Shown here piece by piece: positions 25,146 through 54,222 of a stretch of DNA of 64,000 nucleotides. Each line of letters opens with the position of its first letter. The first letter of the stretch is position 1. The notes under the pieces are model-generated. The model worked only from the letters and a program-made list of their open reading frames with translations. It did not search any database and was not told where the DNA came from. Source of the DNA: a virus. The translations under genes were made by a program, and so were the position numbers. The DNA lies in IMG/VR virus record IMGVR_UViG_3300037478_000708, positions 1-64,000 of that record, one strand, 5' to 3'.

Positions 25146-28100
25146 ATGCCCGCGACGACCTTCCAACGCGCCGTCAGGAACGTTCGCCACGTATCCGAGA
25201 TCGACAGCGGTTCGCCGCTCTCGGCCGTCGTGGGGCGTGCCCTGGCGGCGCTAGGAGGCGAAGAGCCCGAGGTCGTCTACGAGGTCGACGGTGGTCACGT
25301 CGTTCAGGGAGATACGCAGGCCGTCTTCCTGGGAGACGACGGCGAGCTTGCGGTCACCGACATGGACCTCGGCGAGTCCACGGATCGCTACGTGGACCTC
25401 CTCAAGCAGGGCTTCATGCGTCGGGCGCTGAACCCGCCCAAGCCCAAGCCCAAGGCCGAAAAGAAGGTCCGTCCGATCGTCGCGTGCAAGGACTGCCAGG
25501 ATTGGCACCGAGAGGGCAAGCACACGAAGTCGGCCGCGGAGCGCAAGGCGAACCGCAAGGCCAAGAACGAGGCCGCGGTCGGCGTGAGCGAGCTGCCCGC
25601 CGGGCTCGGCGTGCCGCGCGCGCAGATGCCGCAGATCCAGTCCGGCCTCGTGCCGGAGTTCCTCGCGCACCTGTCCGAGAACGGCGTGCGCGTCAAGCGC
25701 GGTCAGCGCAAGGTCGGCAGCTTGAAGCCGACGCAGGACGGCGTGACCTCCGTCAAGGCCGAGGCGCTCGCGCGCACCGCTCCGAAGGACAAGCTCCGCC
25801 TGCCCGTCATCGTGAGCAGCGACGGCTACATCCTCGACGGACATCACCGCTGGGCCGCACTCGTGAGCATCGGTGAGAACGAGCGCATTCAGACCTACGA
25901 GGTCGCCGTGCCGATGCGCAAGCTCTTGGAGCTGGCCCGACGCTTCGAGAAGGTCGGCTACAAGGAACACGGTGAGGCGATCGAGGATGCGGAGCACGTC
26001 GACGAGTTCCTCGCTCTAGGGCTCCCGACCAAGCTGCTTCCGCTCAAGGGCGAGCTGGCGCGGCTGGTTCGATCGCAGCGCGGTCCTGTTTCGGTCGAGC
26101 AAGCCCGCAACTATGTCGCGACCGATCCCTACGTGCGCTTCGATCCGACCGAGCAGGAGATCGTCGCCGCGCTCAAAGCCCTGGGGGGTCGGCTGCGCGG
26201 CAAGGCGTTCGTCTTCGAGAACGTTCCGATCGAGGAGGAGATCTCGCGTGCGCAACTCGCCTCGTTGGAACGCGCGCTCGACAAGATCTTCGCCGCGGCC
26301 GGCATCGACGTCGAGTTCACCAAGCACTTCCACGAGCGCGTCAACGATCCGCGCAACGGGAAGCCGATCACGGTCGAGGAGCTGGCCGGGATCTTCCGCG
26401 AGGTCTGGTCGAAGCACCGCAAGACGCTGGAGTCAGTGGACGTGGACTGGAGGGCCATCATCCACGACACGACGTCGGCGATCAACATCCCCGTCGTGCT
26501 CGACTACGACCCGCGCAAGGGCGAGGTCGAGCTGGTCGCAAAGACCGTCATGCGCCGCAAGGCGTTCATGGCGCGCGAGCCGCGACTCAACGTGACGAGC
26601 GGCGTGGCCGAGCGGGGAGAAGTCGACGAGGCTGCGGAACGTTCCAAGGTGCCCGGTCTCCGGTTCGACGTGCGCAAGCAATGGCCCGGCTACGCCTTCA
26701 AGGTGGTTCACGTTCCGTCGGGGCTGCCGATTTGGGGTTCCGATCTGACGAGCGTCAAGCTCGCGACGTGGGCGGGCTCCAACGTCGTCAAGGACATCCG
26801 CAAGGTGGTCAAGGCGGCCAACGCGCACTTTGCGCGGTTCGACTGGGACAAGCCGCAGGGGGAGCTGGACCTCGTGGGGGCGAAGCGTCTCGCGCGGGAA
26901 TTCTCGCTCAAGTTTCGGGAGGAGGCCGTACCGCAGAGCATCAGTTCGGTTCTGGTGAACGAAGCTCGGAACGTCGACGAGGCGTACGCGGCCTTCGACC
27001 ATACGCACGCTCCCGCCGGAACCTCCGCGCGGGAGAACTTCCCGAAGTTCATCCTGACGGGGCTCTACGACTCGCCTGCCGTTGCGCGGCAGGCCGGGCA
27101 GTACGTGCGCAGGGTCAGCGTCGAGCCGGGTGTCTCTTCGACGCGGGAGTGGAACCGCATGAGCGACGCGCAGATCAAGGCGCTCTACAAGAAGCTCGGG
27201 CTTTCCGCGTCCGGACCGACGATCGGTACGACGAACACGTTGCCCGGTCAGCCGGTCAGCGAGCACGAACTCGCAGTGGATGAGGGCGTCTACGACCCGT
27301 TCGCGCTCAAGGCCGTCTTCATGACGGGTGGCGCGGGCAGCGGCAAGAGCTTCGTCTCCGAGAAGATGTTCGGCGGGATGGGCCTCAAGGTCGTCAACTC
27401 CGACGCGGCGCTCGAGCGCGCGATGGCGAAGGCCGGGCTCGATCTCAAGAAGGATCTCGGTCTCGAGCAGGTGCAACGCGAGGGCGGCATCCGCGATCAG
27501 GCCAAGCTGCTCACGTCCAAGAAGCTCGACGTCTACGTGAAGGGTCGTCTCGGGCTCATCATCGATAGCACGGCCGCGACGAGCGCGAAGGTCACGCGGC
27601 AGGTCGACCGTCTCCGCGCGCTCGGCTACGACGTCTGCATGGTGTTCGTGAACACGAGTCTCGAGACGGCGCTCGCGCGCAACCGCGCTCGGGCACGCGT
27701 CGTGCCGGAGCGCATCGCCACTGCGGATTGGAGGAAGATCCAAGAGAACCTCAAGACCTACCGCACGCTGTTCGGTCCGGCCAACTTCCGCGAGGTGCAC
27801 AACGACGAGGTGCTCACGCCGCGCGAGGTCGTCTCGCGTCTCGTGCCGCAGCTCACGCGCGTCGCCATGTCGCTCCTCAACCGGCCCGTCCAGAATCCGA
27901 TCGGCAAGAAGTGGGTCGCGGACGAGATCGCGGCGAAGAACCGCCAGACCGCGCGGCCGGGTCACGCCCAACGGATGCTCGCGGCGAGCATCGAAGACGA
28001 GGGGGAGCCGCTCTTGGCTGAAGCCTTGAAGAAGTCCAAGGTGGTTCCTGGGGTGGCGTTCGAGACCGAGAAAATTGGGTCCTACACCTACTTGACCGTG

Positions 28101-31100
28101 CGGCACATTCCGTCGGGTAAGGCCATCTATTCACTCACACGCGGACCGATTCCGGGAGTGCGGAAGACCGTTGCTGTCGTGGAGAAGATCCTCAAGCGGA
28201 TGGATTGGAATGTGCCGGAGGATCAGCTTGACAAGAAGACCGCTGTTCGTTTGGCGGCGGAGATCGGGCAGAAGATCCCGCTCGACGTCTACGGCAATTA
28301 CGAGATCCGCGAGTCCGCGCTCGACGAGGACATCGTTCTCCTGCTCGGCGGTCTCGGTGCGGTGGCCTTCGGGGGGCTCCTCGGCGCGCTCAGCGTGAAG
28401 GCCAAGAGGCTCGTGCAGGAGATCCGGGCGCTTCACAAGCGCGGGCAGATGAGCGCGGCCGAGCAGGCTCTCTCCAAGATGAGCGCGAGCGACCGCGAGA
28501 AGATCAATCAGCTCTTCGCACGCGAGACGCGTCGCCTACGCAACGAGGACAGCTTTTGGCTGTTCCCCAACGGCGAGCACGTGCCGGACCGTCCGGATCG
28601 CGTGAGCGACACGCGGGCGCTCGAGCGCGCCACTCAGCGGGTCAAGAAGGGCGACGTGAACGAGTCGATGGCGACGGACAAGCGCATCGCCGCGATGGCA
28701 ACGCGTCTCCTCGATCGCATCGACAAGTTGCAGGCGCAGTACGTCAAGCTCGAGAAGGACGTCCGCGCGGAGCACGAGAAGCGCGCGAAGCAGGTGGAGG
28801 CGATCCGAAACGCTCACGGAGGCGTCGGTGTTCCGGATCTGCCCGCCGCGGAGAAGGCCAAGGTCGACGCGCTCTGGGCCGAGCACGACCACAAGCGCGC
28901 GGAAACGTGGTGGGACAAGAAAGGCGACCCGATCGTGCAGCGTCTCGCCAGGCTGCTCGAGATGGCCACCGCGCCGACGTTCTCCTCGAGGTGGTCCAGC
29001 ATCTACCAGCACTACTTCGTGGTCGGTGGCGTGGGCAAGCTCGACACGAAGCAGATTCGCACCGATCTCCGCACGCTGCACCTACGGCCGTTCTCGAACG
29101 AGTTCTACGAGCGGGTCGTGCGCGGTCGCGCCAAGGTCGGCGTTGCCACACTCGCGGTCGGTGACCACTTCGCGATCGATCGCGGTCTGGAAACCGGGTA
29201 CTACGTCGTGCAGGCGATCACGCCGAAGCGAACGCAGGTCACGGCGCGCAATCTCGACACCAACGAGCAGATCAAGGTGCGCGGCAAGGAAGAGGTGATT
29301 CCGCTGTCGCAGCACGAGGCGACGCAAGGGGTTCGGATCCACAAGGCGTACACGAAGCGGCTGGCGCAGATCGCCGAATCGCTCGACGAGGACAACATGG
29401 ACGAAATCTGGGTCACGCTGAGCCGAGAGGAAGCCGCGGAAGAAGCGGAGCTGGATCTCGTCGAGCACGAGTGCATCGTCATGGACGAACTCGCCGAGAC
29501 GATCGAGTACGGCTTGAGCCTTCTCGACGTCGATCAGCTCAACACCTTCTTCGGTCTCAAGGCGGAGGAGTTCGAGACGGCCGTGGAAGAGGGCGACTTC
29601 GAGCGCGCCGAGCTGATCGCGCTCGGGCTGCTCGAGGGCCTCCCGCTCGACGAGTACCGCCGCATGACGCTGGGCTCCCGCATGCGTCGGCTGCGTGCCC
29701 GTCGGATCGGTGTCACCAAGGCCGTCCGCTCCGGCCAGACCACCCGCGCCGAGCTGAGGCGGGAGAACCGCAAGCGACGGATGAAGCGCAGGCGCAGCCC
29801 CACGATGAAGATGCGCGCCAAGCGCTACCTCCGGAAGACGCGGATGCGTCAAGCTCGACGCCGGCCGCTGTCGATCGCGAAGGAGTCGCTCGACGAGTAC
29901 GGCCGCCGTCGCTCCTCCGGAGGGGACCCGCGTTGGATCAAGGCGAAGTACGCCGGCACCGACGCCAAGGGCCAGCCCTTCAAGAAGGGCGAGGAGGTGC
30001 TCTACTACCCCCACGGCAAGAAGATCTACGCGGGCGAGAACGCCAAGTCCGCGTGGCGCGACTTCCTGTCCATGCGCGGCGACGAAGAGGGCACGCCGTA
30101 CGCGGAGAGCCTCGACGAGGGACCGTTCGACGCGTCTTTCATGCTCGAGGATCTCAACGAGGACTACGAGGTCCCCTCGGACTACGTGCTCACGCGTGTC
30201 ACGAGTCACCGTCATCGCGATCAGCTCCGCAGCGCGTTCGGTGACGATGCCATCTCCGTGATGGCTTGGAAGCCGGGTCAGAATTTCATCGTCGATGGCG
30301 TCGAGGCGTTCGTCGTTCCGAAGGCGCGGTTCGACGAGGAGGTCTCCAACATCGGCTACGGTCCGGGCAAGCGGTACACCCCGCTCAAGCGGAAACCGGC
30401 CCTGATGCGCGGCAAGTACCGCATCGGGGTCTGGATGGGTACGAACACGTACCGCGACAACCAATGGCTCAAGTCGCGCGGCTTCCGCCGCCTGGAGTTG
30501 GACGAATCGCTCGCGCCGATTCCCGGGGATCAGTACCGTTACAACCAGGCTGTGAAGTCACTGCACAAGCGGCGTCCGACGAACTTGTCGCACGAAGAGT
30601 CCGTGCGCATCTTGGCGTGGGACCACGGGAAGGGGAGGGCCTTCATCGTGGATCTGCTTACGAAACGGGCAGGCTATTCGGAAGCAGCGGCCAATGCGCT
30701 GATCGACAAAGTTACGAAGGGCGACATTGATGAGAGCTACGGAGTGCCGTCTGAGGCCGTGGACGAGGTGGCTCCGCCCGGCTTCGAGGGCGCGGTCAAG
30801 GCGATGAAGAAGTCCGGCGACGTCGACAATCCCTACGCGCTCGCGTGGTGGATGAAGAAGCGCGGGATGAAGTCGCACAAGAAGGAGTCGGTCGAGGAGG
30901 CGAGTCCGCACGAGGCGATCAAGGTCGGCGATCAGGTCGTGACGAAGGAGGGCGTCGATCCTTCCGGCTTGATCGGCAAGGTGACGAAGCTCGAAGGCAA
31001 TCGGGCGGTTGTCCAGTGGGGTCGCGGCCGTTCATCCCCGTCGCTCCATGCGCTCCGCGACCTCCTGTCGGCTACGAAGAAGGACAGGAGCAGCACGCGA

Positions 31101-32090
31101 GGGCTCCGTAGGCTCGAGTCGGTCGAGGAGCAGTCCGGTGACTACCGCGCCACGATTCAGATGAACATCGAATGGGACGGCTCGCAGTACACCGTCGAGC
31201 TGCCCCAGAATCTCGGCCCCGCCGGCACGTGGCCGCAGAACGTGTGGGAGTTCGACACCTACGAGGAAGCGCTGGCGTTCGCCAAGCTCTACGAGCAGTA
31301 CGAGCGCTTCTACACGGTCGTCTGGAACCTCTCGCCCGAAGACACCGTGCGCTTCTCGCAGCCCGGCACCAAGCCGACGGCCTACGACGCGGAGTCGCGC
31401 GCATCCGTTCAGCTCAGCGAGGATGCGGTTCGCGTGCCTCCGATCGGGCCCGCGGAGGACAAGCGCTTGCGTTGGGCGAAGACGCAGTGGAAGGAGCGCA
31501 CGATCACCAAGGTCGGGCAGGAAGTGATCGCCTACGTGGGGCGCACCGCGATCGCGTCGGGGCTCTCGATGCGCGACCTCATCCTCAAGCTCAAGCTCTA
31601 CGGGTTGGAGCCGCGCACGTTCCGGCGCGTCGGTCGGTGGGAGTTCGACACCTACGAGTCGGTCGAGGAGGCCGACGCCTACGACAACGGCAGGGCGCCC
31701 AAAGGCGTCAAGCAGTTCACGAGCTTGAACGACGCGGCCGTGTACGACGACGCCTACAAGAAGGGCTCGACCGAGATCTGGTACGCGATCGACGCGGGCA
31801 TCGGTGCGCTGTACATGGGCCTGGACCATCTTCGCAAGTACGAGCCCCGTGCGATTCCGACCGCGGCGACCCTGGCGAAGACGCACGTGCGAGTGGGTAA
31901 GATCGCGGAGACTCGGCCCGAGCGGATCTTCGGCCTCATGCAAGGTGAGCGGTGGAGTCCGCAGGGAGAAGCGCGTACGCTGATCCGCAAGCTCGGACTG
32001 CGCCACACGTCGATGAACGTCGGCGACGTCATCAAGGTCGGGGGCAAGGTGCTGTTCGTGGACCGCGTGGGCTTCAAGAAGCTGGACTAG
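25146..32090 (+). CDS. Giant modular protein 1 (2314 aa), putative head-packaged polyprotein: ParB/Srx-like module, FTKHFHERVNDPRN module, P-loop kinase, Arg-rich core-like segment, SH3/KOW-like modules, YodL-like C-terminus
   Basis: DGHHRW (~25835); GGAGSGKS (27327-27350); HTSMNVGDVI..VDRVGFKKL; modules separated by ES[LV][DE]E / xDE linkers. Confidence 0.85.
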   Translation: MPATTFQRAVRNVRHVSEIDSGSPLSAVVGRALAALGGEEPEVVYEVDGGHVVQGDTQAVFLGDDGELAVTDMDLGESTDRYVDLLKQGFMRRALNPPKPKPKAEKKVRPIVACKDCQDWHREGKHTKSAAERKANRKAKNEAAVGVSELPAGLGVPRAQMPQIQSGLVPEFLAHLSENGVRVKRGQRKVGSLKPTQDGVTSVKAEALARTAPKDKLRLPVIVSSDGYILDGHHRWAALVSIGENERIQTYEVAVPMRKLLELARRFEKVGYKEHGEAIEDAEHVDEFLALGLPTKLLPLKGELARLVRSQRGPVSVEQARNYVATDPYVRFDPTEQEIVAALKALGGRLRGKAFVFENVPIEEEISRAQLASLERALDKIFAAAGIDVEFTKHFHERVNDPRNGKPITVEELAGIFREVWSKHRKTLESVDVDWRAIIHDTTSAINIPVVLDYDPRKGEVELVAKTVMRRKAFMAREPRLNVTSGVAERGEVDEAAERSKVPGLRFDVRKQWPGYAFKVVHVPSGLPIWGSDLTSVKLATWAGSNVVKDIRKVVKAANAHFARFDWDKPQGELDLVGAKRLAREFSLKFREEAVPQSISSVLVNEARNVDEAYAAFDHTHAPAGTSARENFPKFILTGLYDSPAVARQAGQYVRRVSVEPGVSSTREWNRMSDAQIKALYKKLGLSASGPTIGTTNTLPGQPVSEHELAVDEGVYDPFALKAVFMTGGAGSGKSFVSEKMFGGMGLKVVNSDAALERAMAKAGLDLKKDLGLEQVQREGGIRDQAKLLTSKKLDVYVKGRLGLIIDSTAATSAKVTRQVDRLRALGYDVCMVFVNTSLETALARNRARARVVPERIATADWRKIQENLKTYRTLFGPANFREVHNDEVLTPREVVSRLVPQLTRVAMSLLNRPVQNPIGKKWVADEIAAKNRQTARPGHAQRMLAASIEDEGEPLLAEALKKSKVVPGVAFETEKIGSYTYLTVRHIPSGKAIYSLTRGPIPGVRKTVAVVEKILKRMDWNVPEDQLDKKTAVRLAAEIGQKIPLDVYGNYEIRESALDEDIVLLLGGLGAVAFGGLLGALSVKAKRLVQEIRALHKRGQMSAAEQALSKMSASDREKINQLFARETRRLRNEDSFWLFPNGEHVPDRPDRVSDTRALERATQRVKKGDVNESMATDKRIAAMATRLLDRIDKLQAQYVKLEKDVRAEHEKRAKQVEAIRNAHGGVGVPDLPAAEKAKVDALWAEHDHKRAETWWDKKGDPIVQRLARLLEMATAPTFSSRWSSIYQHYFVVGGVGKLDTKQIRTDLRTLHLRPFSNEFYERVVRGRAKVGVATLAVGDHFAIDRGLETGYYVVQAITPKRTQVTARNLDTNEQIKVRGKEEVIPLSQHEATQGVRIHKAYTKRLAQIAESLDEDNMDEIWVTLSREEAAEEAELDLVEHECIVMDELAETIEYGLSLLDVDQLNTFFGLKAEEFETAVEEGDFERAELIALGLLEGLPLDEYRRMTLGSRMRRLRARRIGVTKAVRSGQTTRAELRRENRKRRMKRRRSPTMKMRAKRYLRKTRMRQARRRPLSIAKESLDEYGRRRSSGGDPRWIKAKYAGTDAKGQPFKKGEEVLYYPHGKKIYAGENAKSAWRDFLSMRGDEEGTPYAESLDEGPFDASFMLEDLNEDYEVPSDYVLTRVTSHRHRDQLRSAFGDDAISVMAWKPGQNFIVDGVEAFVVPKARFDEEVSNIGYGPGKRYTPLKRKPALMRGKYRIGVWMGTNTYRDNQWLKSRGFRRLELDESLAPIPGDQYRYNQAVKSLHKRRPTNLSHEESVRILAWDHGKGRAFIVDLLTKRAGYSEAAANALIDKVTKGDIDESYGVPSEAVDEVAPPGFEGAVKAMKKSGDVDNPYALAWWMKKRGMKSHKKESVEEASPHEAIKVGDQVVTKEGVDPSGLIGKVTKLEGNRAVVQWGRGRSSPSLHALRDLLSATKKDRSSTRGLRRLESVEEQSGDYRATIQMNIEWDGSQYTVELPQNLGPAGTWPQNVWEFDTYEEALAFAKLYEQYERFYTVVWNLSPEDTVRFSQPGTKPTAYDAESRASVQLSEDAVRVPPIGPAEDKRLRWAKTQWKERTITKVGQEVIAYVGRTAIASGLSMRDLILKLKLYGLEPRTFRRVGRWEFDTYESVEEADAYDNGRAPKGVKQFTSLNDAAVYDDAYKKGSTEIWYAIDAGIGALYMGLDHLRKYEPRAIPTAATLAKTHVRVGKIAETRPERIFGLMQGERWSPQGEARTLIRKLGLRHTSMNVGDVIKVGGKVLFVDRVGFKKLD

Positions 32091-32092
32091 AG

Positions 32093-35000
32093 ATGCCGAA
32101 GAACATCCAAGGGCTGACGGGCGAGATCGTGACGTACATGATGCGGGGGCGCCGCACGCCGTCGGATCTCCGGACGCACTTTCGCCTGTCCGTCAAGACG
32201 GCGCAGCACGTCTACGACCTCGAGCCCGACGCCTTCGGCCCCTCCGGTAGGGGCCGGCAGTGGTACCACACGCAGGTCGGGGCGCTCCTCAAAGCCCCGG
32301 ACGCGTTCGAGGCGGAGATCCCTGCGACCCCGCACCGGTCCAGCCTGAACGAGGTCGCCGCCGGGGCGCTGCGCGCTTCCGTGAGCCCGCTGGCCGAGCA
32401 CGAGCTGTCCGAAGGCATCGCGGACACGCATCAGGTCAAGATCGCCACGCGCACGCTGCAGCTCTCGGCGATGGGCGCGAAGATCATGGGTGGCATGGAC
32501 CACGCGGGCGCGGTCAAGGTGCTCCGCGCGAACGGCTGGCCGGACACGAAGATCAAGGCCGCCCTCAAGAAGCACGGCCACGCGGACCCCGACGTCAAGA
32601 AGTGGCTCGGCGAGTCCAGTGACACGCTGTCACTGGACGAGGCCCGTCCGGAGCCGATCAAGGTCCCCGAGACGGTCTACAAGGAGAAGCTCGCCAAGCT
32701 GTCGTCGAAGGACAAGGAAGCGCTGCGCAACGTGACGATGGCGTCGCGTGGAGACCACCGGCTGTTCAAGCCGCTGGACGCGGACGGCGCCGCACTCATC
32801 AAGCGGCTGTTCGGCGAGGTGACCGAGACGCACGTCGGACGCGGGCCGCAGAAGCGGGAGAGCGCCGCGGAGGGTGCCGGTGTAGGAAGTCCGTCGCGCA
32901 CCGGCTCGCACGCGATCGTCGAGGGTGTGCTGCGTGTGAACGACCGCATTCGCGAGCGCGAACTGCTCGGGGAAGCCGGCGGCGCGGGTCAGGAGGCCCC
33001 GAAGGATCCGAAGTGGGGCACGCCCTACGGCTTGCCGATGCTCCACCCGAGCGGGACGGCGATTCGCATGCGCCGCAAGGGGCAGCGCGTTCGTTTCTTC
33101 GACCTGAATGGCAAGCAGGTCGGCCCCGAGCACGCCAACGTTGCGCCGGCCGTCGCGTGGGCGATGAGCAAGGGTTTCGTCACGGAGAGCGTCGACGAGG
33201 CCGGCAAGCCGCTCAAGGTGAAGTGCGGGCAGTGCGGCAACGTCTTCGCGACCAACAAGGACTACCCCAAGTGTCCGAAGTGCGGCAGCAAGGACGTCGA
33301 CCTGCCGGAGTCGGTCGACGAAGCCGCGAGCAAGACGGTGCTCGGCAAGTACAAGCAGAAGACCGTCACGCTGCGCGACTACGGCGATGGAGACGTGGAC
33401 ATCCTCGTCGGGTCGCTGGCCGTGCCTCTGGACACTGCGAAGAAGAAGGGGATCGCGCCTCCGAAGAATCCGCGTGACCTCGCTCAGGTGAGCGCGTTCT
33501 TGGACAAGGCGCTCCCGATCCTGTTCCCGGCGAAGGCGGGGTTCTCGATCGAGTCCGTGGACGAGGCGTCCGGGACCACCGTTCGCGCGGCGGTGCGGCT
33601 CGACTGGTTGAAGGGCGCGACTGCGGGCGTCACGCCGGACGAGAAGGTCGTGGTCTTCCGCTCGTCCGACTACGACAACAAGGGAACCGTCAGCGGTTCC
33701 TACGCCGTTCTCGGGCGCTCTTCGCAGCGCGACCTGTTCTCGTCGCTTCACCTCGAGTGGAACTCCGGCTTCACCCTCGACCGGGGGCAGCACGCGCAGA
33801 ACCGCAAGCGGGCGGAGCAGGCGTTCAAGAAGCTGCCGACCAGCGAAGCCAACGACGACAAGACCGACGACCTGCCCGCGAAGGCCGAAGCCGACCTCAA
33901 GGCCAAGGCGAAGGAGATGGGCGCGATCAAGGTCTCCGGCAAGGGCCCGAGCGTGAACGCGACGTTCGACGACAAGAAGAAGGCGCAGGCGTTCCTCGCG
34001 CACGCCGAGAAGGTCGGCAAGGCCGCGATGCGCCGCTCGGGCGACGAGGAGTACACGGTTCACATCGACGAGTCGGTCGAGCGGTACGCGGGCGCGAAGA
34101 TGGTGGGCGGTTCCGGGGCGGTACCGTTCAGCGCGCTCAAGGTGGGCGCTCAGTTCCGCTTCCCGAAGTCCGACGAGATCAACACGAAGACCTCGGAGGC
34201 GGGCAGCTACAAGACGGCGAACGGACGCAAGTTCAAGACGGGCAAGCACGCGGCGGTCATCCCCGCGAAGTCGGACGAGTCGCTCGACGAAGCCGCCGGA
34301 ACGATCGTGCGGACCTTCTCCTCGGGGTACGTGGCGCTCCGCCTGCCCAGCGGCATCACCGTGCTCGCGCGGGACACGGGGGATGGTGAGCCCATCGCGC
34401 ACGCGAACGTGGCGCAGGCCAAGAAGGGTCTCGCCCGGTTCCTGAGCGCGAACCCCTCGGTGAACGCTCGCGTGCGCGACGCGAAGCGGCCGTTCTACAT
34501 CCTCGTCGAGGACGTCAGCGAGAGCCTCGACGAAGCCGCTCCCAAGAAGAGCAAGGGCCACATCGCGTTCCTCGGCGACTTCGAGTACCTCATCGTCGGT
34601 ACCGACCTCGCACGCGCTCCGATCAGCAACGTCATGGACGTGCGCACGGGGAACCGCCTCGCGCGCTTCGAGGCGACCAAGGCGGCGGCCGACACCGCGA
34701 TGAAGATCGCGTTCCAGGCGTTCGGCAAGCCGGTCGACCCGAAGGCGATGCAGCGCATGCGCAAGCTCCTCGGAGAGAGCCTCGAGGAAGACATCGACGA
34801 GGATGTGCGTCCCGGGCAGATGTTCGTCGTCGTCGACGTGTCGGTGCGCGGCGGGAAGATGATCGGCGAGATCTACACCGGTGCGGCGAGGGCCGACGCG
34901 GCGGCGAGCAAGCTGAAGGCGCGTGGGCAAAACGTGCAGGTCATCGACGCGCTCTGGTACGAGCCCGCCCGTCAGAAGCTCATCAAGTCGGGGCTCGTCG

Positions 35001-38000
35001 GGGAGGACGCGGAGCCCCGCGTGCTCGCACTTGGGGACGGTCGCTATGCCGTCGATCTGGGCGAAGGCGAGGCGCTGGTCAAGATCGTGGACACGCTCGA
35101 GGAAGCGATCGACGAAGCCGGTCGTCTCGCGGTCAAGTGCATGGAGTGCGGAAAGAAGTTCAAGACCGCTTCCATGCTCCCCGACTGCCCGAAGTGCGGC
35201 GGTTCGGACATCGAGCCCGACTACGACGCGCCCTCCGCGAAGAAGAGCTACGCGGCCGGCAGGACGCGCAAGCGTTCCGTCGGACACGAGTCGATCATCG
35301 AAGGCGCCGTGCCGAAGGTGGGCGATCGCGTCGCGCTTTCTCGCGACCACCTCCGCGGCACCGGCAACCAGACGGGTACCCTGCCGCAGTTGCGGGGAAC
35401 CGTGACCGCGGTCAGCGGTGCGGGCATCGCGACCGTCGACTGGGGTCGCGGGGTGAAGTCCCCGCGCGTGAACGTGAAGAACCTCGTCGTGCTCGGCAAG
35501 GGCGACAGTCTCCCCGTGGAGTCCGCCGACGAGGGGCTCGCGCCGCTCGAGGTCACCGTCACGGACGTCTTCGACAACGGCGCGTGGTGTCACCCGCGCT
35601 ACACGGTCAACGTTCGCACGAACAACAACGAGGACTACACGTTCGGCATGTTCGAGCCCGGCACGGAGCCCGCGGCGCTCCAGACCGTCGAGGACTTCCC
35701 GAACTTCACGAACTTCATCAAGGGCGCCGCTCGCCCCGGCGAGTACATGGAGCGCGTCGAAGTCGCCGCTCTGCCCGACGTGCTGCGCACCCAGCTCCAG
35801 ACGCTTCTCGCGCGGGCCGACACCTACGACCGCACGATGGAGTTCGATGAGGCCGCCGACGAGTCGGCGATCCGCAGCTTCGACGTCATGGCGCAGATGC
35901 GCTGGGAAGAGACGCTCAAGCCCGGCGCGAAGGTGATGGTCTACTGGACCGCGGGCAGCTTCGGGCACTACCAGGGGAAGGCCACGGTCAAGTCGCTGAA
36001 CAAGTCGAGCGTGACTGTTACGCTCGACCACGATGTTCCCGATCGGAGCCGTCTCGGTGGCGCCGGTTACGCGAAGGGCAAGAAGATCAACGTGCCGCGC
36101 GTCATGGCGAACTACGGCCGCAACACGTGGTCGATGGGCTTCAACGCGGTGCACCCGCTCGGCGGGCCGCAGGCGTTCATGGAGGGCGCGGTCGACGAGT
36201 TCACGAGCGCGGCCGTGCCTTCCGTCGGCAACCTGCATCCCTGGGCGCATCCCTACGGCAGCGAGGTCGAGTTGATGGACGAGCCCGACGAACTGGACGA
36301 CGAACAGCTCGACGCGCGCGGCAACATCGAGCCGATCGACGAGGCGATTCAGCCGACGGTTGCGGGCTTCCGGATGTTCGTGGTCGGTGCGCTGACGCAG
36401 TGGGACAAGCAGCAGGAGGTGCGCGCGTCGAAGAAGCCCGGCGGCAGTCACAGCCCCTACGCGCTGTCGCTCTACCTCGAGGCGCTCCACCGCGGGGAGA
36501 AGAGCAGCACCATGCGCGGGGTGAAGCCCGACTCGATGGATCCCGAAGATCTGCGCAAGTTCGCCAAGATGCTCGGCGAGCAGTTCTTCTCCGACATGCC
36601 CCCGATCCGGAAGACGCTCAAGGCGATCGACGCGTACCTCGCGTCGGGCAAGGCGCCGAAGTACCCCGGCTCGAGCAGCCGCTCACTTCGGAGCGAATCC
36701 CGCGATGAGACTGCACGTCTCGCCAAGGGGCTCGTCTACACCGCGGTCGCCGCGGCGGAGGACGGCCGGCTGACGGAAGCCGTCGCCAAGCTCCGGGCCG
36801 CGGGCGAGACGCTCGACGAAGACGCCCTCGAGGGCCTGCTTCCCGAAGACGTCGTGGAAGCGCTCAACGAGTGGGCAGACGAGAACGACGTCGACGACGC
36901 GATCGTCGAAGGCTACGCGGTCGCGCTTCGGCTCGGCCTGGACGACCACGTGTACGGCCTCGACGAAGCCACCTCGGCGGCGAAGCTGCTCGACACGGCC
37001 GACAGCAAGCTCATCTCCGAGCTGCGCAAGGGACTCGTCAAGGTCGGCGCCGCCGCCAAGGAAGCGAAGCGCGGTCAGGCCGAGATGGAGAAGCGTCTCG
37101 GTGTGGGCAAGAGCACGGCCAAGGATCAGCTCAAGATCGTGGTCAAGGAACTGGAGGCGTACCGCACCCTGCTCGATCAGATCATCAAGCAGGCACAGGT
37201 GGCCGAGAGCGTCGACGAAGACCTCGCCGAAGCCGGGTCGCTGCACGACGCGCTCCTGAACCACTTCGTCCGCAACCGCGGGCGCTCCTACACGGCGAGC
37301 GAGATCGCGCGGCTCTTCTCCGCGTCCACCGCGGAGTCGATGAAGACGCTCTCCTCGCTCGTCAACGAGGGCACGCTCATGTTCCGGCGCGGCGAGGGCT
37401 ACTCCCTGCGCGGCAATTCGAGCGCGCTGCGCATCCCCGCCAGCCTGCACGGTTCTCGCGTGGGCAACTTCGTGAACCAACGCACGGAGGAGGCGGAGTT
37501 GGACGAGGTGCGCAACTCCGGTCGCCCGACGAACTGGCGGGGCAGCGGCGAGGCGGGTCGAGACGCTCTCCAGGCCCGCGGTTCGGCGAAGACCAAGGCC
37601 CGCTTTCAGGTCACGCAGCTCGTGGCCAAGAGCGGCACGACGCCCGCGGTGCTCGCCGACGTGTCGAAGCTCTCCACGTCGATGCCGGCGCTCAAGTACC
37701 GGGGCAAACCGGGCGAGAGCTACGACATCGTGTACAAGGGCCGGGTCATCGGCACGCTGCGCTCGTCAGGGAGCGGCTCGCTGCCCTGGACGGTCAAGCG
37801 CAAGGACGGCACCAAGCTCTCCGACGTCGGCTTCGGCTCCGTGCACCACGCCGTCACGCGCGCCCTGGCCGACGCTCTCGGCGACGCCTGGGGCAACGCG
37901 GAAGAGTCCGCGGATGGCCTTGGTGAAGGACTGGGGCGCAAGGTCTTCTACACCCGGGATGGCGTCGGTTCGTCGAAGTACACCGTCAACTACCACGATG

Positions 38001-39811
38001 GGAAGACCACGCATTCGGACGGCAGCCCGTTCTACGGGATCTTCGTTTTCCCGAACAAGGCGAAGCGCGACCAGAAGATCCGTGAGCTTTTGAAGCAGGG
38101 CTACGAAGAGGTCAGCTCTGCGGTTCACGAGACCACGACCTCCGGCACGGTCGGCGGCTACCGCCGCGGCAAGCTCGAGCAGCCCGAGAACAAGGGCCGC
38201 ACGGGCGGCATCCGCGACGACGGCCCCGGCAAGAAGGGACCGCGTTCGGTGTGGTCGCCCGACGCCATCGCCAAGGTGCTCGAGCAGATGCGCGAGGCTC
38301 TGCCCGGCCACTCCGACGAAGAGCTGCTCGAGCTGCTCGACGAGGCCCCCGAGGAAGGCGCCCGGAAGGACGTCACCGTCTTCGGGGACGGCAAGGGCAA
38401 GTGGTTCGTGGCGGATCCCTTCGGCAAGCAGGAGCGCTACGCCACGAAGACAGAGGCCGTCCAGGCTGGTCGGGATCTCGCGCAGCACGAGAACTGGGGC
38501 TTCGTGGTCAGCGACCCCGACGTCACCCTCGCGAGCGAGTCGATCGACGAGGCTCCCGAAGACCTCCGCGAGATCGATCCCGTCGACACCATCCAGCGGG
38601 GAGACAAGGTGACGATCCTGATCCCGGCCGGGCTCGGCAGGCAGGGGCAGGAGTGGAAGCCCAAGGCGGGCAAGGCCGTCATGCGCGGTCCGCACGGGTG
38701 GGTCCTCAACATGGGCGGTGCCCACGGAACGCCCGGCGTCGCCTCCTCGCGCAACATCGTGAAGGTGCAGCGCGGCGGGAAGACGCTCTACCACAACCCC
38801 CGTCCGGATGTGCTCGGCGAGTCCGTGGACGAGGCGGGTGCGGACAACCGGCGTCCGGTGAAGCTCGGGCCGATCGAGAAAGAGCTGCTCATGCAGCTCC
38901 GCGAAGAGCGCGGCAAGCACGGCATCGAAGAGCTGATCGCCGCGAGCCCGATGCTCAAGAAGCTCCCGTATCAGGACGTGCTCGTCGCCGCGCAGAATCT
39001 CGCGACGCTCGGTCTCATCGGCGGCAACGGCCGCGGGATCGTCCTGCCCTTCGGCGAGTCCGAAGACGCGGGTCTCGACGAGGCGTCCGTGCCGGTCAAG
39101 GGTCACGACACGGTGACGGAGGTCGGCTTCGCCCGCGGCACGTACTACTACGTCTCCAAGAGCGGTCTCAAGAACTCGGTCGCGGTCAAGCGCAAGGACC
39201 GTGCATCCGCCCGCGAGCGGTTCCGGCAGATGCTCCGCAACGAGGCGAACGTCAAGGACGCCGACGCGCTCATCAAGCAGATCGACGCCAAGCTCGGCGA
39301 GTCCCGCCAGTGGGCGCGCTACGAGGTGCAGCTCGACGAAGAGTTCTTCGATCGCTACGACGCGCTTGGCATCGAGCGGCCCGATCCGAAGACGATGTGC
39401 CACGGTCAGTGCGAAGGCACCGGCTGGGTGCCGATCGGGCCTCCCGAAGGCCGCGTGCCGGAAGGCCGTCTGTTCTGCCCCGCCGACAACGAGGAGCCGT
39501 GGCGTACGCTCTGGCTCGAGGCGGAAGAGAAGGATCCGACCGACGATGGGTACCACATCGTCAAGTGCCCCGACTGCGAGGGCACGGGCAAAGATCAGGG
39601 CGACGCCTCTCACGGCGAGCGCCGCCGAGCGCAGAAGACGGAACGCACCACGATCGAGTTCCCCGAGTCCGCCCTGGAGACGTACGTACTCGCCGCGCAG
39701 GCCGCGGGGCTCGCGGAGGACGATCCGTGCTTCGTCTTCGAGGACGGCCGCTTCACCGCGGAGCTGCCCGCCGACGTGGCCCCGCGCATCATGGAACTCG
39801 TCGCTCAGTGA
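32093..39811 (+). CDS. Giant modular protein 2 (~2572 aa), putative head-packaged polyprotein: two Zn ribbons, SH3/KOW-like modules, winged helix, DUF2188-like module, C-terminal CxxxC/CxxC module
   Basis: ATG 2 nt after the stop of ORF1; at least 9 exact ES[VLI][DE]E linkers plus many variants. Confidence 0.85.
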   Translation: MPKNIQGLTGEIVTYMMRGRRTPSDLRTHFRLSVKTAQHVYDLEPDAFGPSGRGRQWYHTQVGALLKAPDAFEAEIPATPHRSSLNEVAAGALRASVSPLAEHELSEGIADTHQVKIATRTLQLSAMGAKIMGGMDHAGAVKVLRANGWPDTKIKAALKKHGHADPDVKKWLGESSDTLSLDEARPEPIKVPETVYKEKLAKLSSKDKEALRNVTMASRGDHRLFKPLDADGAALIKRLFGEVTETHVGRGPQKRESAAEGAGVGSPSRTGSHAIVEGVLRVNDRIRERELLGEAGGAGQEAPKDPKWGTPYGLPMLHPSGTAIRMRRKGQRVRFFDLNGKQVGPEHANVAPAVAWAMSKGFVTESVDEAGKPLKVKCGQCGNVFATNKDYPKCPKCGSKDVDLPESVDEAASKTVLGKYKQKTVTLRDYGDGDVDILVGSLAVPLDTAKKKGIAPPKNPRDLAQVSAFLDKALPILFPAKAGFSIESVDEASGTTVRAAVRLDWLKGATAGVTPDEKVVVFRSSDYDNKGTVSGSYAVLGRSSQRDLFSSLHLEWNSGFTLDRGQHAQNRKRAEQAFKKLPTSEANDDKTDDLPAKAEADLKAKAKEMGAIKVSGKGPSVNATFDDKKKAQAFLAHAEKVGKAAMRRSGDEEYTVHIDESVERYAGAKMVGGSGAVPFSALKVGAQFRFPKSDEINTKTSEAGSYKTANGRKFKTGKHAAVIPAKSDESLDEAAGTIVRTFSSGYVALRLPSGITVLARDTGDGEPIAHANVAQAKKGLARFLSANPSVNARVRDAKRPFYILVEDVSESLDEAAPKKSKGHIAFLGDFEYLIVGTDLARAPISNVMDVRTGNRLARFEATKAAADTAMKIAFQAFGKPVDPKAMQRMRKLLGESLEEDIDEDVRPGQMFVVVDVSVRGGKMIGEIYTGAARADAAASKLKARGQNVQVIDALWYEPARQKLIKSGLVGEDAEPRVLALGDGRYAVDLGEGEALVKIVDTLEEAIDEAGRLAVKCMECGKKFKTASMLPDCPKCGGSDIEPDYDAPSAKKSYAAGRTRKRSVGHESIIEGAVPKVGDRVALSRDHLRGTGNQTGTLPQLRGTVTAVSGAGIATVDWGRGVKSPRVNVKNLVVLGKGDSLPVESADEGLAPLEVTVTDVFDNGAWCHPRYTVNVRTNNNEDYTFGMFEPGTEPAALQTVEDFPNFTNFIKGAARPGEYMERVEVAALPDVLRTQLQTLLARADTYDRTMEFDEAADESAIRSFDVMAQMRWEETLKPGAKVMVYWTAGSFGHYQGKATVKSLNKSSVTVTLDHDVPDRSRLGGAGYAKGKKINVPRVMANYGRNTWSMGFNAVHPLGGPQAFMEGAVDEFTSAAVPSVGNLHPWAHPYGSEVELMDEPDELDDEQLDARGNIEPIDEAIQPTVAGFRMFVVGALTQWDKQQEVRASKKPGGSHSPYALSLYLEALHRGEKSSTMRGVKPDSMDPEDLRKFAKMLGEQFFSDMPPIRKTLKAIDAYLASGKAPKYPGSSSRSLRSESRDETARLAKGLVYTAVAAAEDGRLTEAVAKLRAAGETLDEDALEGLLPEDVVEALNEWADENDVDDAIVEGYAVALRLGLDDHVYGLDEATSAAKLLDTADSKLISELRKGLVKVGAAAKEAKRGQAEMEKRLGVGKSTAKDQLKIVVKELEAYRTLLDQIIKQAQVAESVDEDLAEAGSLHDALLNHFVRNRGRSYTASEIARLFSASTAESMKTLSSLVNEGTLMFRRGEGYSLRGNSSALRIPASLHGSRVGNFVNQRTEEAELDEVRNSGRPTNWRGSGEAGRDALQARGSAKTKARFQVTQLVAKSGTTPAVLADVSKLSTSMPALKYRGKPGESYDIVYKGRVIGTLRSSGSGSLPWTVKRKDGTKLSDVGFGSVHHAVTRALADALGDAWGNAEESADGLGEGLGRKVFYTRDGVGSSKYTVNYHDGKTTHSDGSPFYGIFVFPNKAKRDQKIRELLKQGYEEVSSAVHETTTSGTVGGYRRGKLEQPENKGRTGGIRDDGPGKKGPRSVWSPDAIAKVLEQMREALPGHSDEELLELLDEAPEEGARKDVTVFGDGKGKWFVADPFGKQERYATKTEAVQAGRDLAQHENWGFVVSDPDVTLASESIDEAPEDLREIDPVDTIQRGDKVTILIPAGLGRQGQEWKPKAGKAVMRGPHGWVLNMGGAHGTPGVASSRNIVKVQRGGKTLYHNPRPDVLGESVDEAGADNRRPVKLGPIEKELLMQLREERGKHGIEELIAASPMLKKLPYQDVLVAAQNLATLGLIGGNGRGIVLPFGESEDAGLDEASVPVKGHDTVTEVGFARGTYYYVSKSGLKNSVAVKRKDRASARERFRQMLRNEANVKDADALIKQIDAKLGESRQWARYEVQLDEEFFDRYDALGIERPDPKTMCHGQCEGTGWVPIGPPEGRVPEGRLFCPADNEEPWRTLWLEAEEKDPTDDGYHIVKCPDCEGTGKDQGDASHGERRRAQKTERTTIEFPESALETYVLAAQAAGLAEDDPCFVFEDGRFTAELPADVAPRIMELVAQ
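32614..32638. repeat. Dispersed palindrome copy 5, in frame inside a polyprotein linker (ES-SDTLS-LDE)
   Basis: GTCCAGTGACA-CGC-TGTCACTGGAC. Confidence 0.95.
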
Positions 39812-45257: not shown

Positions 45258-45352
45258 ACGCCCGCCTCCTCGATCGAGAAGATACGCGTCCTGCCTGGAG
45301 TCCACACCTTGAACCTCCCACCCTTCCGCATGGCGCGGAACTGGAGCGCTTG

Positions 45353-52041: not shown

Positions 52042-52667
52042 GTGGAGGGATCAGGTCTCACGCCGGGCATCAAGAACGCGATGGCGCGCGGGGACGTGCA
52101 CTCCTTGTGCAAGTGCGGCTTCCCGCTGCCCAAGTACCCTGGTCGCTACCCGAAGAACTGTCCGCACTGCGGCGAGACGCGCGCGGTCAAAGAGGCCGCC
52201 GATCGAGAGGACGACGACGGGATCGAAGACGAGGACGAGTTCGCGTGAAGAACCCGCTCGGGTTCCTCGCTCCTCAACGTGGACGCGCGCCGGTGCCGTC
52301 GCAGTTGCCGGGACAGTTCTTCGTGCTGGAGTACGACCGCGAAGCGGGCGCCTTTCGCTTGCATGTAGACGACGCGGATCACAGTACCTACGATCTGCCC
52401 GACGACAGCGCCTCCCTCCAGACGCTCTTCCGAGCCCTTACGACCTCCGCAGGAGTACCTCTACAACCGACGCAGATCGACCGCACGATCGACATCGCTC
52501 GCGAGCTGGGGATGGCCCAGTACATCCCGACGCCCGGCGAGCTTGTCGAAGACCGCGTGCTCTCGATCATTCCCCGCGGCCCGTCGCAACAGGGGCTTCA
52601 GTTCGATGAAGACGAAGACCAAGAAAGCTGGCTCGCGAGCCTCCGGCCTCTCGGAAGCCGCCGCTAA
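52042..52667 (+). CDS. Small Zn-ribbon protein (52042-52248) and hypothetical protein (52245-52667)
   Basis: CKCG..CPHCG; GTGA overlap. Confidence 0.55.
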
Positions 52668-54222
52668 GCCCCGACTGCTCTGCGAAGGGTGGCTCGAAGA
52701 GGGCTGCGAAGGCACGGATGGCCTGGTCTTCCGTCCCGAGCGCGCCTACGTCGTTCAGCCGGCCGCCGAGGGCACCGACGCCCGTTCCCGCGTCTGGTTC
52801 GCCTACGGGAGCGATCGGCAGCTCGACGAGAGCTTCGGTCCGATGCAGGTCGTCGAGAACTACGACGAGCTGGATCTGGAGGAGCGCCAGGTCGACGGCA
52901 CGACGGTCAAGCTGCCCCGCGGTGGGCGCTGGATCGTCGAAGGGCCGGCGCAGCGCTCGGACGTCAAGAACGCGAACAAGCGGATCTACGGCCGCACGAT
53001 CTGGGAGAAGCTGATCGCCGACCCCAAGTCCTACGTGCAGGAGTCGATCCGCGAGCGGCAGATGGTCGGGCATCTCGAGCACCCGAAGGACGGCCGCACC
53101 GACCTCAACGAGACCGCGCTCCTCACCACCAAGGCCGTCCTACGCGAAGACGGCGTGGTCTGGAACCAATTCGAGCTGCTCGACACGCCGAAGGGTCTCA
53201 TTCTGCAAGAGCTGACGCGCAAGCGCGTGAAGTGGGGCGTCAGCTCGCGCGGGACCGGCACGGTCGGCGACGACGGTCACGTCAGCGAGACCGACTACGT
53301 GCTCAAGACGTGGGACGCGGTGGCGTCCCCGAGCACGCCCGGCGCGCACCCGGCGCTCGTGACGGGCAAGGGCGTGACCGAGAAGAACGCCACGGAGACC
53401 GTCTCCGTGGACGAGGGGGAACTCGAAGCTCTTCTTACCTCCCTGGACGAGCTGGCCGCGACCGACGTCGACGGCCTCTCCGACCGCGCGCGACTCCGTT
53501 CCCAGATCCTCGACACCCTCGAGTCCCTCGACGAGAACATGCTCCAAGCGGTTCTCCTCAAGGATCAGGGCTGGTCGAAGATCAAGCTCGCCCTCGAGAA
53601 GGCGCGCGAGCCGGAGGGCGGAGCGTTCGACGCGGCTATCGAAGAGGCCCTCGCAAGCGGTGAGGGTCAGGATGGTCTGGGCGAGGGGATGGAGGAAGTC
53701 TTCGATTCCCTTCAGGAGCAGGTGTCCGATCTCGTGACCGAGAACGACGACCTGCGTACGCGACTGGAAGCTGCCGAGTCCGCGCGCGAAGCGCAGGCGG
53801 AACGGCTGGCCGAAGCGGAAGGGGAGCTGACCCAACTCAGGGTCGAGCGTGACCTTGCGCGCGAGCTTCTGGCAGAGACCCCGACGCGCAACGTCGGGGA
53901 TGTGTCCGCTGCGGTGGACGAGGTAATCAGCGAAGCGCCCGAACTGGAGCGATTCCGCGATCTCATGGAAGACGCGCAGTCGCCCGAGCAGGTCCGCAAC
54001 TTCGCCGAACGCCTCGTTCCGATCGTCAAGCCGAAGCCCGCTCCGAAGGAGCCGGTGGAGGAGACGGTCAAGCCGAAGCGGCGCGAGCGGACCGCTCTCC
54101 CGGTGGGGATGGCCTTGGACGAGACCGCGAACGTGAAGCGGTCGAAGCCCAGGACCGCGATCGATGAGTCCTCGGGGGCTCGGATCGTGGCGGCCATGCC
54201 TGCCTTCAAGAAGACCTCGTGA
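52606..54222 (+). CDS. T4 gp21-like prohead protease fused to a C-terminal acidic coiled-coil scaffold-like region
   Basis: KNANKRIY, GHLEHP, LDTPKG, GVSSRGTG, WDAVASPS; then ~270 aa of acidic helical region with VDE/ESLDE/LDE/IDE sites; exact start uncertain. Confidence 0.9.
   Translation: MKTKTKKAGSRASGLSEAAAKPRLLCEGWLEEGCEGTDGLVFRPERAYVVQPAAEGTDARSRVWFAYGSDRQLDESFGPMQVVENYDELDLEERQVDGTTVKLPRGGRWIVEGPAQRSDVKNANKRIYGRTIWEKLIADPKSYVQESIRERQMVGHLEHPKDGRTDLNETALLTTKAVLREDGVVWNQFELLDTPKGLILQELTRKRVKWGVSSRGTGTVGDDGHVSETDYVLKTWDAVASPSTPGAHPALVTGKGVTEKNATETVSVDEGELEALLTSLDELAATDVDGLSDRARLRSQILDTLESLDENMLQAVLLKDQGWSKIKLALEKAREPEGGAFDAAIEEALASGEGQDGLGEGMEEVFDSLQEQVSDLVTENDDLRTRLEAAESAREAQAERLAEAEGELTQLRVERDLARELLAETPTRNVGDVSAAVDEVISEAPELERFRDLMEDAQSPEQVRNFAERLVPIVKPKPAPKEPVEETVKPKRRERTALPVGMALDETANVKRSKPRTAIDESSGARIVAAMPAFKKTS

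Follow-up and report, generated by a model that had tools for sequence, protein, structure and literature searches.

Two adjacent giant phage proteins built of small modules joined by a linker that resembles a capsid-protease site

The presence of two enormous adjacent genes among the head genes of a phage raises the question of what such proteins are made of and what they could be doing there. We have analyzed a stretch of 64,000 nucleotides (the window) from the genome of an uncultured phage (156 kb, circular map, 136 predicted proteins). A previous reading, made from the letters of the window (the sequence-only reading), had described two adjacent ORFs totalling about 4900 aa, and this is indeed what is found: P1 (25146..32090; like all the features of the window given below, on the plus strand) has 2314 aa and P2 (32093..39811) has 2572 aa, the ATG of P2 being located 2 nt past the stop of P1. 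Together they make 4886 aa, vs 39,311 aa in the remaining proteome, and a pair of copies, one of each, amounts to ~540 kDa. On the circular map they are located between the portal (G000 146952-148073; PF07230, Portal_T4, 145 bits, over the cut-off) and the prohead protease, i.e., in a head-gene neighbourhood. The possibility of artefact ORFs due to high GC was ruled out by the GC3 values (0.88–0.90; 0.88 for P1) and by the existence of homologues.

As to what they are made of, P1 and P2 are fusion arrays in which ~40 (about 35–45) unrelated small proteins, with a median length of ~90 aa, have been strung together. The joint between them is a linker with the consensus acidic (L-G)-E-S-[VLI]-D-E then Ala. 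The 15 sites at which the sequence-only reading had placed the strict form, E-S-[VLI]-[DE]-E, were all exact and all within P1 and P2. Six belong to P1, ESLDE at 29376..29390, 29883..29897 and 30105..30119 and ESVEE at 30885..30899, 31116..31130 and 31656..31670, the last one immediately 5' of the P1 C-terminal cap. The nine of P2 are ESVDE at 33185..33199, 33308..33322, 33551..33565 (the start of a homology block with the relative G001), 37205..37219 and 38819..38833, ESLDE at 34277..34291 and 34520..34534 (model pLDDT <50), ESLEE at 34775..34789 (pLDDT <50, with a tandem DIDE site next to it) and ESIDE at 38537..38551 (EAIDE in G001). The variants that had been listed along with them are present too, ~15 in P1 and ~20 in P2. 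Ala occupies the P1' position (Glu-Ala bond) in 9 of the 15 strict sites, and tandem double sites occur.

Such a density is far from what chance would produce. The strict motif is 40-fold denser in P1 and P2 than elsewhere in the proteome, with 15 sites in 4886 aa vs 3 in 39,311 aa (Fisher p 2.6e-12), and shuffled sequences gave a mean of 0.05 strict sites and a maximum of 1 (2000 shuffles). For the core motif [VLI]DE, about 32–33 were observed in P1 plus P2 vs about 4.6–4.8 expected (in P2, 21 vs 2.4, p 2e-13). When all the proteins of the phage were ranked by [VLI]DE excess three of them stood apart, in first place P2 (p 2e-13), then the protease-scaffold (p 1e-6) and then P1 (p 2.5e-6); for the fourth in rank p was already 0.002. 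The accessory genes at 3.6–25 kb (the sequence-only reading had seen no linkers in those at 6–24 kb) contained 0 strict sites and 6 [VLI]DE vs 4.9 expected. The Ser of the strict sites is encoded by TCG, AGC or TCC, and since the codon family switches (TCN/AGC) between sites it is the peptide that is under selection and not a repeat in the DNA. We have thus discarded that a repeat or a recombination signal at the DNA level is what primarily gave rise to the motif, the Glu codons being also variable.

Self-BLAST of P1 and P2 revealed no internal paralogy at E<=1e-3, so that the modules are unrelated, as had been claimed, and internal module duplication can be discarded at this threshold. Their description as mostly basic is only loosely correct: it stood for 28 of the 44 segments, with a pI >7.5 (vs 34% of the other proteins), and fell for the remaining 16, acidic or neutral; the overall pI of P2 is 6.4, not basic. 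The Lys content was 7.1% in the modules vs 3.6% in other proteins. The borders of the domains coincide with the linkers in AlphaFold models, with pLDDT values <50 at the linkers and of 89–98 within the modules, which are in this way predicted to be independent folding units joined by disordered linkers. An exception was the terminal site TLEE/AIDE (P2 1001–1008), modelled as a helix with a pLDDT of ~80. Disordered and acidic linkers, as those modelled, would keep basic modules soluble and independent also in a protein that is never cut, and the giants could then be uncleaved polyvalent proteins, the linker an inherited flexible acidic spacer or recombination joint, and its likeness to sites in the MCP and scaffold a coincidence.

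Single modules also exist as separate genes, another expectation of the sequence-only reading that was borne out: 6 of the ~12 modules tested have standalone homologues of 43–140 aa, beginning or ending at linkers. In P1, a ParB/Srx-like module with a DGHHR motif (25593..25994, aa 150–283; recognised by PHROG and tblastn, with no Pfam match) corresponds to a gene of its own (138 aa) in Aeromonas phage CC2, the module at 26241..26594 (aa 366–483) matches the standalone 125-aa family phrog_14518 and also the C-terminus of phiM12_458, and a P-loop kinase (AAA_33 / Zeta_toxin; 27285..27926, aa 714–927) has its counterpart in a separate gene of Pelagibacter phage HTVC008M (220 aa). In P2, standalone homologues were found for the modules at 34073..34291 (aa 661–733; P0081, 75 aa), 34535..34789 (aa 815–899; P0057, 71 aa, P0145 and P0062) and 34802..35104 (aa 904–1004, pLDDT 89–97; P0031, 78 aa, P0083 and P0029). 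A zinc-ribbon module (35117..35272, aa 1009–1060) has dozens of them (43–92 aa), a Tudor/SH3-like beta-barrel (35864..36199, aa 1258–1369) has homologues of 97–110 aa, and a helical module (36344..36697, aa 1418–1535) has many, of 118–140 aa, that start directly after the linker. Between these two last modules there is an acidic spacer (36200..36343, aa 1370–1417) with 3 further sites and low pLDDT that is missing in the standalone homologues. There is one junction where the N-terminus of the standalone homologue is homologous to residues that precede the linker, and a cut there would miss the exact end of the ancestral protein. The standalone homologues sit in arrays of small accessory genes.

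The biochemical type is recognisable in only 3–4 of the ~40 modules (P-loop kinase, ParB-like, zinc ribbons), to which a possible winged helix may be added, and for this reason we treat the "effector arsenal" of the sequence-only reading as a hypothesis. Searches by fold provided no clue to function: Foldseek against the PDB gave nothing at E<=1e-3 and a search of the ESM Atlas no usable match; BFVD provided weak matches, all to small uncharacterised SH3-like phage proteins, and VIA-align a generic Tudor/SH3 barrel (Z 7.6).

In the relatives of these giants the modules are found swapped, inserted or permuted at the linkers, and the N- and C-terminal caps are kept. Of the alignments, those of two modules (A2, A3) were good, and a 57-sequence MAFFT alignment (A1, 700 aa, nine modules) was misaligned and excluded. 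The P1 C-terminal cap (31671..32087) is terminal also in G001a and P0020, the P2 N-terminal cap (32093..32641, aa 1–183) is N-terminal in G001b and P0003-P0006, and the P2 C-terminal cap (39644..39808, 55 aa) is found in six other giants with 70–74% identity, always terminal. Of the ends of the homology blocks shared with relatives, 46% are located 8 aa or less from a site (16% in the null), a proportion reached in 0 out of 5000 placements made at random. The motif is enriched in the giants of G001 (36 vs 3.6 expected) and G002 (31 vs 4.6 expected, plus 15 [VLI]NE vs 2.0) and in many database giants; G003 has a 3304-aa ORF with no motif enrichment and was rejected as a further example. A word-indexed search with the N-terminal cap retrieved only one additional giant, and tblastn across 50,697 sequenced phage genomes found no relatives of P2. 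Judging from these comparisons, the linker is an in-frame joint for the exchange of modules between phages. Exchange at the linkers would be expected as well of giants that remain uncleaved.

The gene for the prohead protease (52606..54222) carries a Peptidase_S77 domain (52930-53388; PF03420, 54–57 bits, over the cut-off), the sole S77 protease in the genome, fused to a tail that is acidic, scaffold-like and with abundant [VLI]DE. In an alignment to T4 gp21 (5JBL) the H in LEHP, the S in SSRG and the D in WDAV fall at the catalytic positions, the triad of gp21 being His/Ser/Asp. The motif recurs in the protease-scaffold (7 [VLI]DE vs 0.5 expected) and once in the gp23-type major capsid protein (MCP; 54275..55774, PF07068, 156 bits, over the cut-off), two coincidences noticed already in the sequence-only reading. 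The L-D-E of the MCP (54506..54514) is its single [VLI][DE]E and lies at the predicted maturation site, at the end of the propeptide, and 13 relatives have an equivalent [VLI]-[DN]-E, often doubled. As to a covariation of linker and protease specificity, the comparison was only weakly informative: in G002, [VLI]-N-E is used in the giants and also close to the MCP site. T4 gp21 cuts at L/I-X-E, and gp22 is cut at Glu-Ala (PMC9026906). The E-S prefix of the strict linker is not found at the MCP site, so that the linker may hold information beyond that of a protease site, and the absence of this prefix speaks for giants that stay whole, as does the vRNAP of N4, which is packaged unprocessed (PMC5512222). 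However, a mere spacer does not need a fixed sequence of five residues kept across Ser codon families and diverged phages, no protein besides P1, P2 and the protease-scaffold shows enrichment of the core motif, and the tandem double sites resemble the redundant cleavage sites of phiKZ propeptides (PMC9026906). We consider it unlikely that the giants are uncleaved.

The reading that we favour, and that we hold to be somewhat probable on the analysis presented here, is that P1 and P2 are capsid-loaded chains of modules cut at the linkers by the phage's own S77 prohead protease. The chains would be probably loaded into the capsid and cut there, because the linker matches the likely site of the capsid-maturation protease. 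The linker would be a cleavage site of this T4 gp21-type protease, cut after the Glu in [L/I/V]-x-E; the chains of P1 and P2 would co-assemble into the prohead core, with the terminal caps as possible targeting or anchoring elements, and cutting in the prohead would yield many small, mostly basic proteins of the size of the T4 internal proteins, which would remain in the head together with the DNA and might pass into the host when it is infected. The same standard linker would serve phages as the joint for exchanging modules in frame. The proposal of the sequence-only reading, a polyprotein cut in the prohead into early effectors, stood as regards the modules, the shared linker, the motif in MCP and scaffold, the gp21-type protease and the standalone homologues, for which there is now support from statistics, homology, predicted structures and the comparison of genomes. 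That the chains are incorporated into the prohead, cut by the S77 enzyme and delivered at infection, and that they act as early effectors, is what we infer by analogy with gp21, the internal proteins and Alt of T4. The caps and the location between portal and protease are only suggestive of head targeting, and against cutting and packaging must be counted the volume cost of each pair of copies and the lack of a recognisable capsid-targeting sequence.

The linkers might also be cut in the cytoplasm by a different protease, which could be a Glu-specific one of the host or one of the phage that has escaped recognition, the giants being then polyproteins for expression and not cargo. Of the 136 predicted proteins the majority lack annotation, leaving room for such a phage protease, and a T4-like capsid-targeting sequence (CTS) or other head-targeting signal was not recognised in P1 or P2, the search for a CTS covering both N-termini. 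Against this, no peptidase family was found embedded in P1 or P2 at E<=0.5, MPTase-PolyVal (PF18818) had no match anywhere in the 156-kb genome, in which there is a single S77 protease, the motif agrees with the specificity of S77 enzymes and with the sites in the MCP and scaffold of this phage, and the two genes are located among head genes. We regard cutting by another enzyme as very unlikely.

Even if the chains enter the head and the prohead protease cuts them, their products could be mainly prohead core or DNA-condensing internal proteins, like those of the phiKZ inner body or T4 IPIII, rather than effectors. The modules are rich in Lys and Arg, and a segment of P1 (29655..29897, aa 1504–1584) is protamine-like, with a net charge of +28 and a pI of 12; binding of nucleic acids would suit the zinc ribbons, the possible winged helix and the Tudor/SH3-like barrels, and enzymatic domains are few. 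Yet the kinase and ParB-like modules are enzymes, the small accessory gene arrays that hold the standalone homologues are typical of early, host-takeover regions, and the fast turnover of cassettes suits an arms race more than a structural role. A mainly structural or DNA-condensing function appears improbable to us.

In eukaryotic RNA viruses, a viral protease processes a single translation product, at standard linker sites, into proteins with unrelated functions. P1 and P2 are alike in having unrelated proteins joined by standard linkers, here putative sites for a viral protease, but the proteases of the RNA viruses are unrelated and embedded in the chain, and the aim is expression from one ORF, not the pre-loading of a DNA phage capsid. 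A close case is that of the internal proteins of T4, which on ejection act against the defences of the host (PMC9026906, PMC3012670, PMC5694885). T4 IPI-III and Alt (processed by gp21, MEROPS S77) share with this phage the protease and MCP families, a scaffold with many cuts and, as predicted here, cleavage after the Glu of [L/I/V]-x-E, often Glu-Ala, into small (8–20 kDa) basic products. However, T4 has one gene per internal protein, and each of these proteins carries a capsid-targeting propeptide of 10 aa and is cut once, whereas here ~40 units are distributed over two polypeptides, the standard linker is longer and neither N-terminus looks like a CTS. In phiKZ and SPN3US, S80 prohead proteases cut many head-internal proteins after Glu (S/A/G-x-E or A-x-E), with redundant sites (PMC5694885, PMC10052503). 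Their inner-body and ejection proteins have in common with P1 and P2 the short motif ending in Glu and the redundancy, but the cuts strip N-terminal propeptides of separate gene products, not chains of dozens of unrelated proteins.

The polyvalent proteins of phages and conjugative elements (Iyer, Burroughs, Anand, de Souza, Aravind 2017), for which delivery along with the DNA and processing into separate units have been proposed (PMC5512222), are similar long chains of disparate domains, with late or virion gene context, ParB-like and kinase modules and mosaic architecture. Here we have found kinase, ParB-like, zinc-ribbon and Tudor-like modules and many uncharacterised ones near head genes; among the hallmark domains (DdrB-like ParB, ART, PBECR, vRNAP, SNF2 and others) there is only the ParB/Srx-like module (with no Pfam match), plus the Zeta/AAA_33 kinase. 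Polyvalent proteins have 2–15 domains and their release has been proposed via an embedded zincin MPTase, whereas the present chains have ~20 or more modules each, no embedded peptidase and a repeated linker that matches a capsid protease acting in trans. Our searches of the literature on motif strings and phage polyproteins gave nothing relevant and found no paper describing such chains. The design of P1 and P2 extends those of polyvalent proteins and T4 internal proteins in a form that we have not found described.

More tentatively, and as something plausible though short of probable, in a clade of environmental phages with T4-type capsids a large part of the small accessory genes may have moved into capsid-loaded polyproteins, from which the protease would free ~40 ready-made proteins per pair of chains that enter the host before any phage gene is expressed, the linker doubling as a universal in-frame joint for cassettes; this would be a general and undescribed route by which phages bring in an immediate-early programme in the form of proteins. 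Since the linker marks their borders, the modules are a ready-parsed catalogue of small uncharacterised phage proteins, and they are candidates for anti-defence and host-takeover screens because their standalone relatives sit in early-gene arrays. The design of linker and caps suggests a route to load chosen proteins into phage heads in phage-bacterium systems of the laboratory. If the chains are cut and injected, the identity of linker motif and capsid-protease site would provide a rule, readable from sequence, for finding phage cargo proteins in metagenomes, and a single capsid would deliver dozens of pre-made proteins, far above the three internal proteins plus Alt of T4.

We have analyzed two giant ORFs of an uncultured virus (record of 156,008 bp, 100% complete by CheckV estimate; the window is its first 64 kb), both on the + strand, that carries nearly all the genes of the window (G+C 67%). 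P1 (25146-32090, 2314 aa) is followed by P2 (32093-39811, 2572 aa), whose ATG, at 32093, lies 2 nt past the P1 stop. The T4-type portal gene is located at 146.9-148.1 kb of the record, so that on a circular map the giants have the portal on one side and the protease-MCP pair on the other. This pair consists of a protease-scaffold ORF (52543-54222, probable start 52606), with a Peptidase_S77 domain (T4 gp21 family) and an acidic, coiled-coil-like tail after it, and the gp23-type major capsid protein (MCP, ORF 54275-55774). Two ParB_N-DNA methyltransferase fusion genes (43576-44859 and 47325-48569) lie between giants and protease, and the same pair comes after the giant of an unrelated contig, L044. 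Immediately after P2, a 481-aa protein (39911-41356) is poly-acidic in its N-terminal region and carries a Lys/Arg block of protamine-like type, two CxxC pairs that are zinc-ribbon-like and three [VLI]DE triplets vs 0.44 expected; possibly it is one more protein of the head interior. In the ORF 45041-47239 (732 aa), a start at an internal Met gives first 15 residues that end in E-L-D-E (45353-45400); judging from the sequence, if this start is used they would form a short N-terminal propeptide resembling the T4 capsid-targeting sequence.

P1 and P2 are chains of unrelated small proteins, each folding independently, joined by a standard, disordered linker that is selected at the protein level. 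The 15 linker sites of the strict form E-S-[VLI]-[DE]-E claimed by the sequence-only reading were all found in P1 and P2 where it had placed them. Shuffled P1+P2 contained a mean of 0.05 (maximum 1), and the rest of the predicted proteome (39,311 aa) only 3, a 40-fold enrichment in the giants (Fisher p 2.6e-12). The Ser codon at these sites varies (TCG, AGC or TCC), indicating that the motif is conserved at the protein level, and Ala comes next in 9/15. The enriched part was the core triplet [VLI]-D-E, with 32 seen vs 4.8 expected in P1+P2, whereas [VLI]-E-E was hardly enriched (9 vs 5.7). When all 136 predicted proteins of the genome were ranked by [VLI]DE excess, the outliers were P2 (21 vs 2.4 expected, p 2e-13), the protease-scaffold (7 vs 0.5, p 1e-6), where repeats of the motif had also been described, and P1 (12 vs 2.1, p 2.5e-6); the next protein had a p of 0.002. 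The accessory genes (3.6-25 kb), in which no linkers had been noticed, had no strict site and no excess of [VLI]DE (6 vs 4.9 expected). Of the three strict sites elsewhere in the proteome, one reads ESVEE followed by Ala (2205-2219); in the product of gene 147-2258 (703 aa) it occupies residues 687-691, and it is located 13 nt upstream of a putative -1 frameshift signal (2232-2294). In the putative long frameshifted form of this product, the site would be a linker right where the two parts join.

The core motif is present not only in the scaffold but also at the predicted MCP maturation site. The MCP has a single [VLI][DE]E, at the position given by the earlier reading (54506-54514) and just ahead of the gp23 fold's conserved start; in 13 relatives [VLI]-[DN]-E is kept and a second site nine residues upstream is often present. 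T4 gp21 cleaves after Glu in L/I-X-E; it makes many cuts in the scaffold gp22, at a Glu-Ala bond, and takes short propeptides off the internal proteins and Alt (PMC9026906; PMC5694885). When the S77 protease was aligned with T4 gp21 (5JBL), His, Ser and Asp fell on the catalytic positions. This enzyme would cut the linkers. Cutting by another protease is a rival explanation; the genome gave no other S77 match, and none to PF18818, the zincin peptidase that polyvalent proteins carry.

Residues 361-1560 of P2, used as query in an exhaustive HMMER search, had 319 matches. Standalone homologues of 43-140 aa were found for 6 of the ~12 modules of this stretch, specifically residues 661-733 (homologues of 75 aa), 815-899 (67-96 aa), 904-1004 (70-123 aa), 1009-1060 (dozens of zinc-ribbon proteins), 1258-1369 (97-110 aa) and 1418-1535 (118-140 aa). 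In the alignments they start right after or stop right before a linker, the outcome for which the earlier reading had proposed to look, and the 48-aa acidic spacer 1370-1417, with three further sites, lacks any counterpart in them. One homologue belongs to a run of ~30 small co-oriented ORFs, including a separate Zeta_toxin-domain gene, and a second to a comparable accessory array, which makes the giants resemble arrays of this kind fused together. The P-loop kinase and ParB-like modules of P1 are separate genes in the cultured Pelagibacter phage HTVC008M and Aeromonas phage CC2, respectively, and its module 366-483 is the standalone family phrog_14518. No internal paralogy was detectable within P1 and P2, in agreement with modules described as unrelated. 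The predicted products have a median length of ~90 aa; 28 of the 44 are basic, as had been said of most modules, and the other 16 are not. The Lys content of P1+P2 is twice the proteome level, and the nameable modules are only the kinase, ParB-like and zinc ribbons, along with what may be a winged helix and a segment resembling a protamine. Alternatively, the cargo could be mainly structural or DNA-condensing. Inside a 354-aa module of P1, the hydrophobic, Gly/Leu/Ala-rich stretch 1062-1088 (28329-28410) looks like a single transmembrane helix.

Two AlphaFold models, each on a clean two-module alignment, showed domains at pLDDT 89-98 separated by linker-bearing segments at pLDDT <50. The proposal that module boundaries coincide with linkers stood for ESLDE, ESLEE-DIDE, AVDE and LMDE, all in such segments; EPIDE fell in a stretch at 60-64, and TLEE/AIDE, at a construct end, was in a predicted helix (pLDDT ~80), a mild counter-example. 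Fold searches gave no functional lead, module 1258-1369 matching only a generic Tudor/SH3-like barrel. The linker might also be a spacer, the chains staying uncleaved.

Relatives found via the capsid protein have giants of the same design: G001 (MCP identity 87%; 2020 + 2508 aa; [VLI]DE 36 vs 3.6 expected), G002 (61%; four giant ORFs of 657-1626 aa; [VLI]DE 31 vs 4.6 and [VLI]NE 15 vs 2.0) and G004 (50%; 1396 aa; [VLI]DE 4 vs 1.5). In database giants the pattern is even cleaner, some with tandem double sites; P0018 (1242 aa) has ten sites, 9/10 strict, at intervals of 75-218 aa. The homology blocks shared with the relatives are patchy and permuted in order, and 46% of 48 block ends lie <=8 aa from a site vs 16% when randomly placed (0/5000 trials equalled). 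In the tail colinear between P2 and its G001 counterpart the junction motifs are retained and one module is swapped out; besides, the latter has an extra Lys-rich module of ~50 aa exactly at an ELLDE linker where P2 has none (L035, G001, 13900-14100). Cassettes are thus exchanged at linkers, while the terminal modules stay in place. Seven P2-type giants have in common an N-terminal cap (~150 aa) and a C-terminal one of 55 aa (70-90% identical), and P1-type giants and a third type each have their own. The P2-type N-terminal cap is internal in the database giants P0007 (~residue 760) and P0022 (~residue 1090); P0007 starts with the P1-type N-terminal cap, so the two chains appear fused into one in some phages.

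The nearest published concepts are the T4 internal proteins with Alt and the polyvalent proteins (Iyer et al. 2017). The former are alike in protease family and site type, but each has its own gene and targeting peptide. Polyvalent proteins, with 2-15 domains, were explicitly likened to RNA-virus polyproteins, and processing by an embedded zincin peptidase was proposed (PMC5512222). P1 and P2 differ in having no such embedded peptidase and in carrying an explicit linker that matches a trans-acting capsid protease; we found no published description of such linkers in the literature searched. We lean slightly towards cutting in the prohead. The chains would be built into the prohead, with a possible targeting role for the conserved caps, and the cut products would remain in the head and then enter the host.
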